DNA from: a virus
Length of the DNA: 64,000 nt
IMG/VR virus record: IMGVR_UViG_3300037840_000148
Span: 32,001-96,000 of that record
Strand: one strand, 5' to 3'
Of this stretch, positions 5,264-52,424 are shown piece after piece (the stretch's first letter is position 1; each line of letters opens with the position of its first letter). The notes beneath the pieces were generated by a model. It was not told where the DNA came from. It was given only the letters and a program-made list of their open reading frames with translations, and searched no databases. The position numbers and the translations under genes are program-made.

Positions 5264-7690
5264 ATGATACAACTTACTCCTGAATTACAGGCCGCCGTAG
5301 CTCCTATCCAACAACTTGCTGCGCAGAATCAACCAACTCCTCCGTCAGCGCCAGCCCCGGCCGGTCAAGATGCGTTAAGTACCGGGATACCTACAGCCAC
5401 GACAGGTTTAGCCGGGCCTTTGCAGAACGCTTTAAGTAACCCAGCGAACGGCGTTCCGCTGTCTTTTAACGACAAACTACACGCTAATGTCAACGATGCG
5501 GCCGATAATACGCCGCCTGCAGCACAAGGAAAGCCTGGTAGTTGGGCGCGTCAGCTTGTTTCTGGCGCGGTATCAAGTCTTTCAACTGGATTAGGCGACG
5601 TAGCTGCCGCAGCACCGGCCAAAGGTATATTGGGCGGAATCGGTGCAGTCCAGAACGCTCGTGCGGACAGAATTCAGAAAGAACGAAAGGCCCAGACGGA
5701 AGAAGATCAAGCGCGGGCTACGATTGCTTTAACTAATGTCCAGAAGATGTATCACCAGACGCAACTTCACCAACTAAGTGATGAAATTAATCATGCCGAC
5801 GTCGCGGAAGGACAAAAAGAATTCCAACATCTTACAAAAGATGTCAGTGATTTAGGTTTTCCGCCCGCCACGATAGTTGCGCAAGATATCAGTGAAGCTC
5901 AGTATCAAGCCGGACTGAAAGACGGAACCATCAACCCTAGTACGATGACGATCATTCCGACTAATACATATACTCCGATTGGAAAGGATGGGAAACCGGC
6001 AGTAGATCCTGATACCGGTTTACCTAATCATGCCAAGATGTATTCTGTCGTTATTGTCCCGAAACAACTCCCGTTATCCGAAGATCAAATTGATACCATA
6101 AATAAATACGGCAATGGCCCGAAATTTACTTACGACAAGGATCATCCTATCGTACTACCTGGTGCAACAGCTTTGAATCTCGTCCAGTCAGCCAGAGACG
6201 CACAAACCGTCCAAGCTAAGGCTGAATCTGACCGTAAAGCCGCCCAAATTGCCGACTTAACTCAAGATCAAAAATTAGCACAAGCACAAGCATTGAAGAA
6301 TCTCGGCCCGCAGTTCCCTGGAATTTCAGCACAATCAGAAAGTCTCGATAAAACCATGAAGTTCATTACCGGTCAGCATATGATCCAGCAACCGGAGATG
6401 GGCGCTGACGGCAAGCCGACAGGAAAAGTCAACACGGTAGTCGACCCCCGTAGCGCGGCGTTCGCTCAAGCACACCCGACGGCTGCGGAAGATTTCATGA
6501 ATCTTAACGGCGGTTATGTCGATTATGTCAAGTCTCGTGACACTGAGACAGAAAAGCTAAAAGATCAAGCAAACGCTCCGCTGGATAAGATAGAAAAAGA
6601 TCTCCCGGAAATGGAGCCAACCAAGCTGCCGTCTACGATTTCGTTTCTTCAACAAAAATTGAAAGATCCTAATGCGGATAAGCCGCAGGTAACGAATTTA
6701 CTAGTCCAAGCGCAACAAGCGTTGGTAGGGTCACAACGCGCCAAGCTTAAGGAAGAGGAAGACAAAAATAGTCTAGATAATCCTCCGACTTCTAATGCGC
6801 CGTTGACGCCGGAACTTCAATCTCAAATTAATAGTCTCCCGGCCCCGCAAAAAGCCGTCTTATCTGCATATGATCCGAACACCCAGAGCGCTTTGATGTC
6901 AATCGCGTTCGGTAACGGCGAACAGGACTTAGAAAAGAACTTCCCGAGTCGTTTGACTAAAGGTGCTCCAGGTCTTAATACCCAACAAGCGTTAGGGGTT
7001 CTTCACCAATTGAATCCCCAGTGGAGTGAACAAAGTTACGGCGTGAAGCATGACGCTTATAAGAGCGCTACGAGCGGGAAGCTTGCCGACCAACGAGACA
7101 GCCTGAATAACTTCATCGGGCACGCCGCGGAAGCCAAGAGAATTTCAGATACCTTCTGGAATTCAGATCCGCGTCTTTTCAAGAGTACGATTAATAAATT
7201 ATCGACTCTTGGATATGGGACAAGCGCTAACGCCCTACGAGAAGCTTTGGAAATAGTCAACTCGGAAGCTCTGACGATGATCAAGAGCGGCTATGCCGCG
7301 ACTGCGGATGAAATCAAAGCCCAGAATGAAATAAACAGTGCCGACGCTACTGTTGGTCAGATTGATGCCGATTTGAAGGTCTTGGCACGTATGGGTACCG
7401 TCCGAGCCAACACGATGAACGGTCATTATAAAACAGCAACCGGTGATAATTTCCCGAACTTGATTGATACCGAGAATCAAAACGACGCTAGGTATCTCGG
7501 CATCCCGGTTGAGAAGTTTTATACTGGCGGAAGAATCGGTGGTTCAGGCAACGCGCCACAACAACAGGTAACGCAGACCGGTGCGCCGGGACAATCGGCC
7601 GGAGCCGCGGCAGCGACGCCTAACGCCGCACCAGTCGAAGGGACACAACCGAGCGACTTCTTCGGTCAGTTCGGCGGGAAACCGAGATAA
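5264..7690 (+). CDS. Putative internal virion (ejection) protein, medium
   Basis: 808 aa, Ala/Gln/Pro-rich and helical; stop overlaps next start (TAATG). Confidence 0.55.
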   Translation: MIQLTPELQAAVAPIQQLAAQNQPTPPSAPAPAGQDALSTGIPTATTGLAGPLQNALSNPANGVPLSFNDKLHANVNDAADNTPPAAQGKPGSWARQLVSGAVSSLSTGLGDVAAAAPAKGILGGIGAVQNARADRIQKERKAQTEEDQARATIALTNVQKMYHQTQLHQLSDEINHADVAEGQKEFQHLTKDVSDLGFPPATIVAQDISEAQYQAGLKDGTINPSTMTIIPTNTYTPIGKDGKPAVDPDTGLPNHAKMYSVVIVPKQLPLSEDQIDTINKYGNGPKFTYDKDHPIVLPGATALNLVQSARDAQTVQAKAESDRKAAQIADLTQDQKLAQAQALKNLGPQFPGISAQSESLDKTMKFITGQHMIQQPEMGADGKPTGKVNTVVDPRSAAFAQAHPTAAEDFMNLNGGYVDYVKSRDTETEKLKDQANAPLDKIEKDLPEMEPTKLPSTISFLQQKLKDPNADKPQVTNLLVQAQQALVGSQRAKLKEEEDKNSLDNPPTSNAPLTPELQSQINSLPAPQKAVLSAYDPNTQSALMSIAFGNGEQDLEKNFPSRLTKGAPGLNTQQALGVLHQLNPQWSEQSYGVKHDAYKSATSGKLADQRDSLNNFIGHAAEAKRISDTFWNSDPRLFKSTINKLSTLGYGTSANALREALEIVNSEALTMIKSGYAATADEIKAQNEINSADATVGQIDADLKVLARMGTVRANTMNGHYKTATGDNFPNLIDTENQNDARYLGIPVEKFYTGGRIGGSGNAPQQQVTQTGAPGQSAGAAAATPNAAPVEGTQPSDFFGQFGGKPR

Positions 7691-10600
7691 TGGCTACAGG
7701 AAACGACGTAAATCAGACAATCCCGATAGATTTGAATCCGTCCGGCGTCAATGATGTCTCGACACCGGGGATGATCTCAATCGATCAAAACCCAGTTGCG
7801 CCCGAACCTCAGTTAGCCGCTCCTCAAAATATCCCGAACCAGCAGACACCGAGAAACATCCCCAAGACGGCAGACAAGCCGCCTATTATTTCTCCGACTC
7901 AGACAGTCCCGATGTTTTCACCTAACGGCGATCTCGGTGATATCCCGACCGAACGTGTCCATGACGCCATTAAAGCTGGCGGAATAATTGGTACTCCGGT
8001 TGTTGCGCCTGACGGTAGTCACGGCGTTGTTCCGGCTAGCCGGTTGCATGAAGCGTTGAAAGCCGGGGGAAAAATTGATCCGGACGGTTGGGCTCCGATG
8101 CACCACACACCCGGTATACTTGAAAAAGTAACCGGTTTGCCGATCACGGCAACGGGACCGGGCACGATTGGCGCAGACGTTACTAACAGATGGAACGCAG
8201 CAACACCTAAAAACCCCGACTTAAACGCCCCGTATCAATCTACCGGACAACTTCCTGCGCCGAGCGTAATTACCCCGCCGGAAGCGCATGAAGAATTATC
8301 AAAGGGCGTTGTTGCGAATGCCATGACACCGTATGAACGTCAACAACACCCGTTCTTAGCGGCCGGATTAGATTTTGCGGGCGGGATGACATCGCCGGAA
8401 AACTTCGCAATCATGGTTGGGTCAGGCGGATTAGGTAAACTGCCCGGTCCTGCGGGTCAGATTATCGCGAAAGCCTTGTCGTCCGGCTTTGGTTTAATGT
8501 CCGTTTATGCCGCGGTGAAGGAATCGCCGCAGTTTATGGACGCTTTAGCTAAAGGCGATGAGCCGGGCGCTAAAGAAGCCTTGATGAAGATAGTTTTGAA
8601 TATCGCGGCCGGTGAAATGGCTGCCGAGCACGTAATACCAGGCTTCAAGCCGACATTAGGCGCTGTCGGCGAATCAGCAGAGGCCGGAACGCAAGCTTTA
8701 GGCGCTGCAGCGACAGAATACGGCGGTAAGGCCGTCGATGCAGTCAAGAAAGCCGGAGAAGTGGCCGGTGCAGTAGGCGGCGTAGTCAAGGGTGCTGGTC
8801 AAAAGGCCGCGGAAACAGTCACGCAACCGGTCAAGATGATGAACGAAGGGTCGGAAGAAAGGCTTATTCGGTCTATGTCCGGCAGCGCGGGTGTTAATGA
8901 ACGTGACTTAAAAGAAAACGCAACTAGAATGTTGCCTTATCTTGTTGAACAGAATAAAACAAGTAAAGTTTCGACTCCGGAAGATCTTGCCGAGGCTATG
9001 CATGACCAAAAGACAAAACTTTGGAATGATAAACTCGGCGGTAAACATCCTGGAGAAACAATCGACGGGGATAAAATCGCTCAGGATATTAAAGACGGTA
9101 TCAATACCTCGACCCGTCGTCATTTTCCGGAAGTCACGGAAGCATTAGAAAAGTGGGCGGATACTTTTAAAGGTCCGTATCAGCTTGACGAAGCGATGCA
9201 AGCCATTACTGACTTTAATAGCAAGCTGCGAAACTTCTACAAGCAATCACCGAGCGAACAATACAGAATGGCCGCGGCAGATCCCAAATTAGGGATATTA
9301 CAGGACGCTGCAGATTCTTTGCGAGATCACGCCTTTGATAAGCTTTCCGAATTAGGTGAAAAGAACATCCCGGAACTGCGAAAGGATTATGGCGCACTGA
9401 ATCAATGGCAGCGTGTCGCTGAAAAACGTGCCGTGGTTTATGGCCGTCAAGCACCGGTTGACTTCAAACAGAGTATGGGCGCTGTCGCTGCGGTAGCAAG
9501 CGGTCATCCATTAGCTGCGGCGATTCCGTTTGTTACAAAGTACCTCAACTCTCCTGAGCACTTGATTGAATCCGCCATCAAGAAGGCCAGTAAGACGACA
9601 ACTGCGACACCGCCTGAAACTCCAACCGAGCAACCAAACCCTACAAAGGCTACCGCGGGGCCGGGCCTCGGTAGCAAGATTGACCTACCGGCCTATAATC
9701 TCCCGACCGAACCTGCCCAAAATGTCCCGGCTGACAGACGCGCTGAAGGTACTTTACCTGCGGATGTCCACAAACATGAGTGGGGACACATTACAAATGC
9801 AGCAATCGAAGACTTCGGGACGGAAGGCATCAAGAGTGATTCGCATCCAGACTTAGCCGGTCAGAAAAAGACTGCCGCCGCGACAATTATTTTTCACGGT
9901 GTCGACTTTGATGACCCAGAGTCCGTTGCAAGGAATTCCGGCCGTATCCTGTCGACAATTCTAGGCGGCGCTGCTGCGGACGAACTGCACAGCCAAATAC
10001 CGTTCGAAATCAATAGAATGGCTGGCGGCGATGTTAAATTATTGAAAGACATATTCAAAAAAGTAGGCTTCTCGGATGACGAAATAGATGGCGCTATTAG
10101 ATACGGTTTAGATAGAGCAAAAAGAAACTTGACAAAACCCGGAATCGGTGATATATTACAGGCTAATGCTAAAGTCCGAGAGGCTGACTTGCACCCTGAT
10201 TATCACGCTAGCCCGGAAAGAACCGAAGCTTACGCTAATGAAGTAAGGAGAATCCGCGATGAAAACAACAGAGCAGGAAAAACAGCCGTTCAAGGGAACG
10301 ACGAAGCAAATGCTGGAGAACCTGGAAATAAATCTCCAAAAGTGGACGCCGGAACAGAAGGCGAAATTTCGGGAGAAGGTACTAAGCGAAGTCTCCCAGC
10401 CACAGCAGTCGTAACCCCTGACGAAGAAGAAAGTAAAGAACCGGTCACGGCTCGTGACGCGTTCGAAAATATCAAGAAAAAGTATGGTGAATCATCGAAT
10501 GCCGCAAAGACTGGCGAGGGTGCGTCATTCATTACACCGGAAGGTAAGTTTGTCCACCTCGGCACGGATGACCATCCGCAGGTAATCAAGAAAGCCGGTT

Positions 10601-12897
10601 ATGAAAGTGACAGTCAAGATACCCGGGTGCCGTTTATTAATGAATCCGGCGCTATCAGGTCGAATTTCACGACAGGTCGTGCTGGTAGGACGTTGTCATT
10701 CAGCGTTCCGAAAGACGGTGTCAATCCGGAACAAATTGATGCCATGAAGGCCGCCGTCCATCAAGGACTCGGCCGAAACGGTCAGTTGCGTATCGAGACC
10801 GCCGACTCGCCGACGAACCTTAAGAATTCAATCAAGGATTTTGCTACTGCTAATAATGTAGAACCAATGCTTCGGGAGATTGGTGTCCACCCAGAGCAGT
10901 CTAAAAAACTGGATTTACACGCCGAAAAAGAAGAATACAAAGAGTCGCCTGGTTGGACTGAAAAAGCCATCCGGATGGCTAAAGATCAAGGCGGGGCGTT
11001 CTCGATAGACACCAAATCGGGCGAAGCGCCAAAAACCGGCTATATGGTTGAAGCTCGGCCGGAATCTAGAATTTATCTAAATCACGAAGCTACTCCGGAA
11101 GATCTGCAAAAATTCCACGATGATAACCGAGAGTACCTAGCCGAACACCCTGATTTGCATGTCGGGGGTTGGTACGACGCCGATAAAGGTAAGAACGAAT
11201 TAAATATCTCGGCGCGAACTGAAGACAAAAATCGAGCTATCGATTTAGCTAAAAAGTTAGATCAAGTTGCCATCTACGATTTGAATAAAGGCGAGCCAAT
11301 CGAGACTGGCGGAAAAAGCGAGCAAATTGAGTTTCCTGATTATCCTTTAAATCAGCGGATGGCAAACCTGCGCGGCGAAAGTAAGCCTTACGATGAGAAG
11401 ACTAGTCAACGTATTAGTTCAAGATTCCCTACTGCCGTTAGTGCGTCTGAAGACCCGATGGGCCATAATTTAACACTAGACGTTAATAAGATCCTTGAGC
11501 GCCCGAAGGTAGCACAAGCTTTATCAGAAAAGATTCTGAAACAGAATAAAAGCATGGTCTTTACGCCGGAAGAAAAAGCCAACCCGAAAGATTTATTTGA
11601 TTCATTTATCAGGCAGGCTAAAGATAATATAAAATATGTTTACAACCAGGCCCGGGCTTCAGGGAATCATATCGCCGACCGTATCTGGTATGACGGCGCA
11701 CACAATTTCGGAACGCGGGACGCGGAAGTTTACGGTTTAGAGCCGAGACAAAACTTTGCGACTATAGCAACCCAATCTCCTCAGAAAGATTGGAACCAAA
11801 ACGTATCTTTATATGAACGCTTGACGGACGCCGTCCTCAATAAACCGGATGTTAAGTTCACACCGGAAATGAACACGAAGGCAAATCAGTTTATTCGCGA
11901 GATTGCTAAAACTAATAGCAAGCGAGCCGCGCAAGGAAAATCACAGATCGATCCTTGGGTCGACCGAAAACTGATTAATAAGCTGAAAGGCAAGTCTCTG
12001 GATGATTTGAGTAATCCTGTAGAGAAAGCTGCCTGGGTTCGTTTGTACGACGAGGCACACAACCCCCGGGAATTTCATGAAATAGCCCCGGATGGAACTA
12101 AGAAGGGCATCGTGATGCTGAAGGGCACCAACACCCCTGAAAAAGTGGCTTGGGGCGGTCTAGACAGCATCGCGAAAGGAATTTCTGTCCTGCAAGACGG
12201 TTCTTTGGAAAACATCAGCAGAAATCTCGGCGAAGCCCATAAAGTAAGAAGCTTTTATAACAACATCGCCGAGCCAAACAGCCCGCACGAAGATGTCACG
12301 GCGGATACTCACCACGTTGGCTTGAGTTTGATGCGGCCGGTTGCTGGGTCTGATGCTGAACCGGCATTAAATTTCGGCGGTAACGGTTCGACGATAACAG
12401 GGACTCATGGAACGTATCCGTTGTATGTCGAAGCAACTAGACAAGCTATGCGTGAACTGAATGCCGAACATCCTGATGATCCACCGATGCAGTATCCTCG
12501 TCAACTTCAATCTGTTGCTTGGGTTGAATGGCGAAAAATGTTTCCACCGGAATCTAGGACTGAAGCAACTAAAAATAGTGTAAACTCAATATGGAAGGAA
12601 CACCTTGATGGAAAAATCACAGCCGACGAAGCAAGACAACAAGTCTCAGAATTCGCACGTCGATTACGTTCTGGACTGGATGAGGGAGAACAACGTCCCG
12701 CTGACGAAGGAAAACTACCTGCACATCAATTACATGGGGCAGGAAGTTCCACCGGAAGCGGAACAGGATCTTCCGCCGGAACTGAAGTACCGGCAAGAGC
12801 AGTAAAAATCAACCCGAAGAAACAAGCCGCCGCTAACGGCTGGCTCGGCATGATGCAGTCAACGAAAACCGGACAGAAGAGTCTAGGAACAAAATAA
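7690..12897 (+). CDS. Large multidomain internal virion protein with zincin (M41-like) peptidase and C-terminal HhH-glycosylase-like domain
   Basis: 1735 aa; HEWGH..LGGAAADE..GGD; C-terminal WYDGAH..ATQSPQKDWNQN..KVRSFYNNI..VTADTH..LQSVAW. Confidence 0.65.
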   Translation: MATGNDVNQTIPIDLNPSGVNDVSTPGMISIDQNPVAPEPQLAAPQNIPNQQTPRNIPKTADKPPIISPTQTVPMFSPNGDLGDIPTERVHDAIKAGGIIGTPVVAPDGSHGVVPASRLHEALKAGGKIDPDGWAPMHHTPGILEKVTGLPITATGPGTIGADVTNRWNAATPKNPDLNAPYQSTGQLPAPSVITPPEAHEELSKGVVANAMTPYERQQHPFLAAGLDFAGGMTSPENFAIMVGSGGLGKLPGPAGQIIAKALSSGFGLMSVYAAVKESPQFMDALAKGDEPGAKEALMKIVLNIAAGEMAAEHVIPGFKPTLGAVGESAEAGTQALGAAATEYGGKAVDAVKKAGEVAGAVGGVVKGAGQKAAETVTQPVKMMNEGSEERLIRSMSGSAGVNERDLKENATRMLPYLVEQNKTSKVSTPEDLAEAMHDQKTKLWNDKLGGKHPGETIDGDKIAQDIKDGINTSTRRHFPEVTEALEKWADTFKGPYQLDEAMQAITDFNSKLRNFYKQSPSEQYRMAAADPKLGILQDAADSLRDHAFDKLSELGEKNIPELRKDYGALNQWQRVAEKRAVVYGRQAPVDFKQSMGAVAAVASGHPLAAAIPFVTKYLNSPEHLIESAIKKASKTTTATPPETPTEQPNPTKATAGPGLGSKIDLPAYNLPTEPAQNVPADRRAEGTLPADVHKHEWGHITNAAIEDFGTEGIKSDSHPDLAGQKKTAAATIIFHGVDFDDPESVARNSGRILSTILGGAAADELHSQIPFEINRMAGGDVKLLKDIFKKVGFSDDEIDGAIRYGLDRAKRNLTKPGIGDILQANAKVREADLHPDYHASPERTEAYANEVRRIRDENNRAGKTAVQGNDEANAGEPGNKSPKVDAGTEGEISGEGTKRSLPATAVVTPDEEESKEPVTARDAFENIKKKYGESSNAAKTGEGASFITPEGKFVHLGTDDHPQVIKKAGYESDSQDTRVPFINESGAIRSNFTTGRAGRTLSFSVPKDGVNPEQIDAMKAAVHQGLGRNGQLRIETADSPTNLKNSIKDFATANNVEPMLREIGVHPEQSKKLDLHAEKEEYKESPGWTEKAIRMAKDQGGAFSIDTKSGEAPKTGYMVEARPESRIYLNHEATPEDLQKFHDDNREYLAEHPDLHVGGWYDADKGKNELNISARTEDKNRAIDLAKKLDQVAIYDLNKGEPIETGGKSEQIEFPDYPLNQRMANLRGESKPYDEKTSQRISSRFPTAVSASEDPMGHNLTLDVNKILERPKVAQALSEKILKQNKSMVFTPEEKANPKDLFDSFIRQAKDNIKYVYNQARASGNHIADRIWYDGAHNFGTRDAEVYGLEPRQNFATIATQSPQKDWNQNVSLYERLTDAVLNKPDVKFTPEMNTKANQFIREIAKTNSKRAAQGKSQIDPWVDRKLINKLKGKSLDDLSNPVEKAAWVRLYDEAHNPREFHEIAPDGTKKGIVMLKGTNTPEKVAWGGLDSIAKGISVLQDGSLENISRNLGEAHKVRSFYNNIAEPNSPHEDVTADTHHVGLSLMRPVAGSDAEPALNFGGNGSTITGTHGTYPLYVEATRQAMRELNAEHPDDPPMQYPRQLQSVAWVEWRKMFPPESRTEATKNSVNSIWKEHLDGKITADEARQQVSEFARRLRSGLDEGEQRPADEGKLPAHQLHGAGSSTGSGTGSSAGTEVPARAVKINPKKQAAANGWLGMMQSTKTGQKSLGTK
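10129..10157 (+). promoter_or_regulatory. Internal sigma70 promoter inside the 1735-aa gene
   Basis: TTGACA (10129-10134), 17-nt spacer ending in TGa, TATATT (10152-10157). Confidence 0.7.
10259..10414 (+). CDS. Nested overprinted 51-aa protein (+1 frame)
   Basis: MKTTEQEKQPFKGTTKQMLENLEINLQKWTPEQKAKFREKVLSEVSQPQQS; SD TAAGGAG 8 nt upstream; promoter about 100 nt upstream; below the ORF-track cutoff. Confidence 0.65.
   Translation: MKTTEQEKQPFKGTTKQMLENLEINLQKWTPEQKAKFREKVLSEVSQPQQS
12608..12805 (+). CDS. Nested overprinted 65-aa protein (+1 frame)
   Basis: SD AAGGA 8 nt before ATG; globular-looking DYVLDWMRENNVPLTKENYLHINY..EAEQDLPPEL while the host frame turns low-complexity. Confidence 0.65.
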   Translation: MEKSQPTKQDNKSQNSHVDYVLDWMRENNVPLTKENYLHINYMGQEVPPEAEQDLPPELKYRQEQ

Positions 12898-52395: not shown

Positions 52396-52424
52396 ATTAT
52401 ACTTCAGTCTCTCCTGAAAGTCAA
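52396..52424 (-). promoter_or_regulatory. sigma70 promoter
   Basis: TTGACT-N17-TATAAT. Confidence 0.7.

Follow-up and report, generated by a model that had tools for sequence, protein, structure and literature searches.

Can the gene for a giant phage protein hold within its own codons a second, complete transcription unit? The question was raised by IMG/VR virus record IMGVR_UViG_3300037840_000148, a complete 110,831-bp record of an uncultured virus with terminal repeats, of which we analysed bases 32001-96000 (this stretch of 64,000 nucleotides is hereafter called the window, and coordinates given without a locus name are window positions). An open reading frame (ORF) on the + strand, 7690..12897, encodes P0002, a 1735-residue multidomain phage protein of the polyvalent type. 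The initial annotation proposed that this enclosing gene conceals a promoter, a Shine-Dalgarno (SD) sequence and a 51-codon gene, which we call ORF1, and upon re-inspection of the sequence the positions of promoter, SD, ATG and ORF all proved exact. We consider it quite probable that ORF1 is a genuine gene that occupies frame +1 of the linker located after an FtsH-like zinc-peptidase module in the polyvalent protein.

All of the elements lie on the + strand. The -35 hexamer TTGACA (10129-10134) is read in the enclosing frame as TTG ACA, Leu-Thr, and the extended -10 element TG-a-TATATT (10149-10157, with the TG at 10149-10150 and TATATT at 10152-10157) is read as (gg)T GAT ATA TT(a), Gly-Asp-Ile-Leu. 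The spacer between TTGACA and TATATT is 17 nt, and the match is 11/12 plus the TG. Given the position of the -10 element, host RNA polymerase would start near 10161-10165, leaving a predicted 5' untranslated region (UTR) of about 95 nt (10164..10258). The SD sequence TAAGGAG (10244..10250), read by the enclosing gene as (g)TA AGG AGa, Val-Arg-Arg, stands 8 nt before the ATG at 10259 and itself includes a +1-frame TAA stop. ORF1 (10259..10414) encodes the 51-residue protein P0001 in frame +1 of the enclosing ORF. Translation would begin from this ATG and SD, the SD being spelled by Arg-Arg codons (AGG AGA) and the ATG by an Asp or Asn codon (xAT) plus a Gxx codon.

In a single genome these signals carry little weight. 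The initial annotation held that three aligned signals were unlikely to be due to chance, a claim that the window sequence taken alone supports only weakly and that stands through the comparative evidence given below. ATG-initiated ORFs of at least 40 aa in frame +1 cover 17% of the enclosing gene (5-21% in the enclosing genes of the relatives), and an SD-like string precedes 7.6% of the ATG trinucleotides in the genome. As +1 stop codons need a T at the second position of an enclosing codon, a linker that lacks hydrophobic residues is automatically open in frame +1, and hence the openness of ORF1 is partly automatic, which counts against reading it as evidence of a gene. The first 20 kb contain 25 promoter matches, a number equal to that in shuffled sequences, and the one at 10129-10157 is the best of them; in simulations one 11/12 match per ~100 kb is within the range of chance. 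ORF1 taken alone in one genome is therefore not unusual; the signals are weakly more than chance would give and are only suggestive. These figures are what favors regarding ORF1 as a compositional artefact of a Gly/Glu/Ala/Lys-rich linker having no T at position 2, accompanied by fortuitous promoter and SD look-alikes.

Comparative evidence for ORF1

A protein search gave relatives of P0002 with up to 54% identity. The DNA loci comprise nine viral contigs (L002-L010) and a single contig from a metagenome (L011), together with L018-L023, L025 and L026-L030, which were brought in by a peptide-pattern scan using the small protein; L026-L030 are identical around the match. The comparison thus covers 16 distinct enclosing genes (the window, L011, L005, L008, L006, L009, L003, L002, L018-L023, L025 and L026), which are 27-49% identical within the peptidase module. 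An ATG-initiated ORF of 40-65 aa in frame +1 is found at the homologous place in 16/16 of these genes. Stop codons in the +1 frame of homologs would have spoken against a nested gene, and the ORF stays open in all 16 genes. The motif LTTEQL..MSPEEKAxxR is common to them with the sole exception of L006; the family consensus is LTTEQLxExxxxDVxxMSPEEKA(E/K)(F/L/V)RxxL, with a short form TT.Q(L/M)...(T/S)PE(Q/E)KAK(F/L)R. L006 has a diverged form that escapes detection by the family hidden Markov model (HMM). A diverged 65-aa +1 ORF subfamily without SPEEKA is shared between L006 (4627-4824) and the first peptidase copy of L023, and these two modules are too closely related for selection to be judged.

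The same bases read in the enclosing frame give a Gly/Glu/Ala-rich linker that cannot be aligned across the loci. When the loci (about 200 kb) and the whole genome were translated in six frames and searched, the family HMM matched only these sites, all in frame +1 and all after peptidase modules. When the window protein was left out of the HMM, it was still recovered at 39.2 bits (E = 2e-8 at Z = 1e6).

The pattern of substitutions by codon position also argues that the +1 frame is under selection. In the 30-codon core of the overlap (15 loci) the mean pairwise nucleotide differences at positions 1, 2 and 3 of the enclosing codons are 0.50, 0.49 and 0.26, versus 0.42, 0.32 and 0.65 in the 33-codon block just upstream, which is read in the enclosing frame only. 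Hence, the upstream block has the usual single-frame pattern, whereas in the overlap the most conserved base is the wobble base of the enclosing codon, which is the second codon position of ORF1. The initial annotation had named synonymous-site constraint in both frames as a check on the nested gene; wobble differences drop from 0.65 in the flank to 0.26 in the overlap. Amino-acid identity follows the same division: 43% in frame +1 versus 28% in the enclosing frame within the overlap core, and 23% in frame +1 versus 51% in the enclosing frame within the upstream block.

The start signals have also left a mark on the choice of synonymous codons. The ATG is built from an Asn, Asp or His codon that ends in T followed by a codon that begins with G, and the codon at the ORF1 start ends in T in 16/16 loci, versus 7.9 expected (P = 7e-6). 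GGAG or GAGG is found 6-10 nt before the ATG, again in 16/16 loci, and the Arg codons at the SD are AGR (AGG or AGA) in 26/33 cases, versus 6.6 expected (P = 3e-14). The loci are not phylogenetically independent and the P values are approximate, a point that tells against the synonymous-codon tests; as the third positions of the enclosing codons differ by at least 0.42 in every pair of loci, the P values are yet probably not badly inflated.

A peptide motif that is kept where the enclosing linkers are unalignable, a wobble base that is the most conserved of the three, the ATG and SD with their strong codon bias in 16/16 genes, and an HMM that matches nothing else in six frames led us to reject a chance ORF. 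To these are added 201 database matches and fusion proteins that carry the ORF1 domain in frame (see below), and a chance origin is, in our estimate, highly improbable.

A second way to read the bases without a nested start would be a programmed +1 frameshift at the rare tandem AGG-AGA codons, which would make the ORF1 hairpin the C-terminal extension of a truncated, peptidase-containing protein. Tandem AGG/AGA codons plus an SD-like element are known stimulators of frameshifting in E. coli, and in the window the +1 frame is open from the GGA onward. However, 13/16 loci have a +1 stop within 8 codons upstream of the ATG, and in seven of the loci (L009, L003, L002, L020, L022, L023 and L026) a stop lies between the SD and the ATG. 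Moreover, the ATG is present in 16/16 loci, and the 6-10 nt that separate SD and ATG are better suited to initiation than to shifting of the type seen in RF2. The upstream stops therefore exclude a frameshift fusion as the conserved mechanism, and we give frameshifting only a very slight chance of accounting for ORF1. An in-frame restart of the enclosing protein after ORF1 was also rejected, as the next ~60 enclosing codons hold no ATG, GTG or TTG.

Given these comparisons, ORF1 is very probably a real nested protein-coding gene having its own ATG and SD. On this point the initial annotation, according to which the nested gene is real and has an SD and start codon of its own, is strongly supported by the 16 loci, the codon-position pattern and the synonymous-codon tests.

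The candidate promoter

The initial annotation also described a host-type promoter hidden in coding sequence. Promoter hexamers are found at a fixed place before ORF1 in many of the other loci. The match is perfect (12/12, with a 17-nt spacer) in L003 and L008, 11/12 in the window, L009, L019 and L023, 10/12 in L018, L020 and L025, 9/12 in L022, and 8/12 in L011 and L005, such that 9/15 lineages score 10-12/12 at a fixed distance. The distance from the end of the -10 hexamer to the ATG is 101-104 nt in 11/15 loci and 110 nt in L008. The Leu codon of the -35 hexamer is TTG in 13/15 loci, versus 3.95 expected (P = 1.2e-6), and the Asp codon of the -10 hexamer is GAT in 10/11 loci (P = 0.0036). 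The TTG and GAT preferences and the fixed-distance hexamers support the hidden promoter, and we read them as selection for a promoter in most lineages. A TTG start within the frame of the enclosing protein was considered and rejected because no consistent SD precedes the TTG.

The whole genome bears on whether such a sequence would be used. In the 110.8 kb there are 11 sigma70 matches of at least 11/12, versus 1.95 expected from Markov-1 simulations, a 5.6-fold enrichment, and thus host polymerase probably reads the consensus. Several of the matches fall in intergenic gaps upstream of minus-strand genes, and the minus-strand consensus promoters suggest a heavy reliance on host polymerase. Most of the 11 matches were observed to lie on the minus strand ahead of putative early genes (for example, at window positions 52424, 31848, 26205, 24322 and 22407).

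Several points weigh against an active promoter. The sigma70 consensus of the host is assumed, the genome-wide enrichment being the only support for that assumption. A good match is missing in L002, L006, L021 and L026 and before the diverged extra copies of ORF1 described below. The hexamers coincide with partly conserved residues of the enclosing protein (L-T...D-I-I), and hence the signal specific to a promoter is confined to the two synonymous choices. Finally, no + strand terminator-like site was found after the end of ORF1 at 10414. The 5' UTR gave no Rfam match, and its predicted folding was not significant (z = -1.0).

These observations would be expected if ORF1 were real but translated, via its own SD, only from the mRNA of the giant gene, the "promoter" being a silent by-product of Leu-Thr...Asp-Ile-Ile in the enclosing protein. 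The hexamers would then be built simply from partly conserved amino acids, and four lineages plus all of the diverged copies do keep SD, ATG and ORF without a good promoter; the lack of a terminator fits equally well. The codon choices do not fit, however, since conserved residues would not in themselves call for TTG in 13/15 loci where 3.95 were expected, nor for GAT in 10/11. Two lineages with 12/12 hexamers, a 17-nt spacer and a fixed distance to the ATG likewise argue against a by-product, as do the 11 consensus promoters in a genome where about two were expected. Expression from the long mRNA alone seems to us improbable, and ORF1 is likely to have its own functional promoter. In most lineages this would be a sigma70-type promoter spelled by the codons for Leu-Thr (TTG ACA) and Asp-Ile-Ile/Leu (gaT ATa ATn) and ending 101-104 nt upstream of the ATG. 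With such a promoter, host RNA polymerase could provide for the small protein independently of the surrounding operon of large genes, which are presumed to be virion genes.

The peptidase module and the second nested gene

The module that precedes ORF1 in the window is a putative zinc peptidase (9640..10263, residues 651-858 of P0002), with the motif HEWGH at 9775-9789. The final 45 codons of the module hold the promoter, 5' UTR and SD of the nested gene. The HEWGH motif is conserved in the module alignment, and the signature HExGH...GG.AADE...GD is present, that is, HExxH followed by a downstream acidic ligand in a GG.AA(D/E)E helix. An AF2 model of the module had a pLDDT of 92.4, and in a Foldseek search of the PDB nearly all of the top matches were protease domains of the FtsH family, although these matches were weak (E ~1e-2, prob ~1, TMq ~0.5), as was the HMM match to FtsH (E 0.24-0.76). 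No Pfam peptidase family matched the module at E<=0.01, and thus no curated polyvalent-peptidase model did so. By this modelling the module weakly resembles an FtsH/M41 protease domain and none of the Pfam polyvalent-peptidase models.

ORF1 keeps a set distance from the module. In 15 loci it starts 161-174 residues after HExxH, whichever domain follows, and the following domain varies among lineages. In L026 the distances from HExxH are 176 residues for a diverged copy and 381 residues for the main copy. L002 has a tandem duplicate of ORF1 (7202-7336 and 7340-7456). Diverged ORF1-like +1 ORFs follow the duplicated peptidase modules in L018 (3270-3467), L019 (3591-3806) and L026 (4374-4535), and by inspection further diverged copies were found in L003, after the HExxH at residue 916 of the enclosing protein, and in L023, after that at residue 859. 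The diverged extra copies mostly lack a good promoter. L010, a relative without a peptidase module, has no ORF1 copy. As every phage copy found follows a peptidase module, duplicated modules included, the distribution argues for co-inheritance of ORF1 and the module as a cassette.

The rest of P0002 is sparsely annotated. DUF7178, in the C-terminal part, was the sole match to Pfam or PHROGs, and relatives of the protein contain ART-PolyVal (PF18760). Among those relatives the order of domains is shuffled, and in some the peptidase modules are duplicated. In architecture P0002 agrees with the polyvalent proteins described by Iyer et al. 2017 (PMC5512222). Packaging of P0002 in the virion is presumed, solely from its co-orientation with other large genes.

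ORF1 has a counterpart at the other end of the protein. The ORF1 region read in the enclosing frame is a disordered linker, and the disordered C-terminal tail of P0002 covers in the same manner a second + strand ORF in frame +1, ORF2 (12608..12805), which encodes 65 aa with the core ..VLDWMRENNVPLTKENYL.. and is preceded at a distance of 8 nt by an SD-like GGAAGGA (12593..12599). ORF2 is nested in the tail in 7 lineages, and the SD-like motif is present in 6/7 of the nested copies. In three other places ORF2 is free-standing and starts at or just after the stop codon of the large gene: L018 (~6586-6741), L008 (10716-10889) and L003 (11794-11970). In proteins P0110 and P0170 an ORF1 domain is followed by an ORF2 domain, and P0169 has the reverse order (hhalign E = 1e-13, BLASTP E = 7e-8). 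Since the domains are fused in both orders, these Rosetta-stone fusions argue that the ORF1 and ORF2 products act together. Several relatives were also seen to have CxxC pairs that resemble Zn-ribbons, together with a motif, LTDxDKxFLRExGI, that recurs at a terminus.

The free-standing copies bear on which reading came first. The small gene had been taken to be the newer one, and the direction is probably the reverse. ORF2 is free-standing in three lineages, and hence the small ORF2 gene probably came first and the giant ORF was extended across it. By analogy with ORF2, and because the ORF1 family exists outside polyvalent genes, ORF1 is likewise probably the older reading and the linker the newer one. 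The giant ORF would then have grown across both genes, translating them out of frame as disordered linker and tail.

The ORF1 product, its possible function and its meaning

P0001 has neither Cys nor a hydrophobic N-terminus. Its AF2 model (pLDDT 75) is a two-helix hairpin with helices at residues 15-27 and 31-46, and Foldseek found no fold match for the 51-aa model. The S/T-P-E-E motif is one that commonly caps the N-terminus of helices. The product would thus be a helical hairpin of ~45 residues from an uncharacterised family. Neither Pfam nor PHROGs contains a family that ORF1 matched above sub-threshold noise, and membership in BESS, DUF7405 and LTXXQ was rejected because those matches were sub-threshold only. 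ORF1 and ORF2 members matched no Pfam family. TnpV (PF14198) was not matched by 28 ORF1 members at E<=1, nor by ORF2 and the fusion proteins at E<=0.5; judged by these searches, both families differ from TnpV and are unnamed.

A profile search of 1.84e9 representative proteins gave 201 matches at E<=1e-3. Many of these proteins are just 40-57 aa long and match over the full profile, and eight small family proteins that were looked up are encoded on contigs of 0.6-10.6 kb. Two metagenome-assembled genomes (MAGs) of Acidobacteriota have the ORF1 domain outside polyvalent genes, once as a 66-77-aa ORF and once as the C-terminal part of a ~173-aa protein (L031 5938-6138; L032 5683-6204). There the copies lie among small genes without an assigned function, and their genomic context gave no functional clue. 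In other proteins the domain is joined to Zn-ribbon-like segments or to a receiver domain. A short motif, for example RVN, WIQ or WVN, closes the C-terminus of many free-standing members. Searches of GenBank phages by blastn with the region, and by tblastn with the peptidase module and with an ORF1 family member, gave no match. Scans of viral contigs with a single protein and with P0110, a scan of genome contigs with the big-protein alignment, and a search of the ESM Atlas likewise gave nothing.

What might such a protein do? A reading of ORF1 as an inhibitor of the upstream metallopeptidase, as first proposed, fits its strict linkage to the module, binding being putative. The other initial suggestion, a superinfection-immunity factor, found no support in any of the results. 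Small amphipathic-helix proteins can inhibit FtsH-type proteases, as the small helical FtsH inhibitors lambda CIII and SpoVM do, and the immunity genes of polymorphic toxins are small, lie immediately 3' of an enzymatic module and travel with it as a cassette. ORF1 resembles these in being a small gene that lies right after an enzymatic module and moves with it, a likeness that is one of analogy only. We put forward tentatively that ORF1 could serve the adjacent peptidase as a partner specific to that module, whether as inhibitor, as "immunity" protein or as chaperone, and that it is inherited with the peptidase as a cassette and works with ORF2. That adjacency is the whole of the evidence for a functional link to the peptidase counts against this proposal.

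It is also possible, if somewhat doubtful, that ORF1 is real but functionally unrelated to the peptidase, being instead a factor for early host takeover or anti-defence, or a small regulator that acts together with ORF2, and that it was trapped near the module by the history of fusions. A sigma70-type promoter would imply expression by unmodified host polymerase, which suits an early function, and the family occurs apart from the peptidase in the Acidobacteriota MAG loci and in fusions to Zn-ribbon or receiver domains. The Rosetta-stone fusions, moreover, join ORF1 to ORF2 and not to the peptidase. Against such a separation stands the finding that every phage copy found follows a peptidase module, including the diverged copies that follow duplicated modules.

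Nested phage genes are themselves not new. In the spanins of lambda, Rz1 is wholly nested in the +1 frame of the larger gene Rz, has its own SD and start, and functions together with the Rz product. Like Rz1, ORF1 is a small gene that sits in frame +1 inside a larger phage gene and has an SD and a start codon of its own. However, the proteins have no sequence relation: Rz1, a lipoprotein, carries a signal sequence and a Cys, and P0001 has neither a lipobox Cys nor a hydrophobic N-terminus, which rules out an Rz1-type o-spanin. The settings also differ, as the gene that encloses ORF1 encodes a 1735-aa multidomain protein, the nested site is a disordered linker, and ORF1 has an apparent promoter of its own.

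The morons of lambdoid phages are a second parallel. These are autonomous units of promoter plus gene inserted between other genes, usually ended by a terminator and expressible by host polymerase. ORF1 is similarly a unit of promoter plus gene within a co-oriented, apparently structural gene block. It departs from a moron in its location within a coding sequence and in a promoter that codons spell out, and no terminator was found after it.

The enclosing gene has its own parallel in the polyvalent proteins of phages and conjugative elements, giant multidomain proteins with a zincin HExxH peptidase and shuffled domains (Iyer et al. 2017, PMC5512222). The likeness extends to the HExxH hub module, the shuffled order, the duplicated modules and the ART-PolyVal domain of relatives; it ends at the peptidase, which is FtsH/M41-like by fold and unmatched by the Pfam models. 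The terms "overlapping" and "internal promoter" do not occur in the text of Iyer et al. 2017 (PMC5512222), and in the papers searched we found no description of the nested ORF1/ORF2 arrangement. With Rz/Rz1 as precedent, what is new here is the presence of two nested genes per enclosing gene, a promoter spelled by codons, and one gene found in both the engulfed and the free state.

A broader scheme, which we regard as possible but unlikely as a whole, is that the polyvalent genes of this phage group arise when enzyme modules are fused across the small genes of their partners, that each enzymatic module (the FtsH-like peptidase and DUF7178) keeps a cognate small regulator or immunity gene in the +1 frame of the next linker or tail, and that ORF1 and ORF2 form a complex, expressed early from the synonymous-codon promoter, that controls the timing of cutting or activation of the polyprotein, be it injected or newly made. 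As gene callers forbid nested genes, two conserved families, with 201 profile matches for ORF1, are effectively invisible in phage annotation. Promoter, SD and start are all spelled by codons of the enclosing gene, and each leaves a measurable signature in synonymous-codon choice. ORF2, in its free and engulfed states, shows how a giant ORF can swallow a neighbor into a "linker". The nested genes offer a testable handle on the regulation of polyvalent virion proteins and their peptidase modules. They also suggest that disordered linkers in the giant proteins of mobile elements should be screened routinely for hidden genes; if the scheme is true, such linkers would quite generally conceal genes that function.

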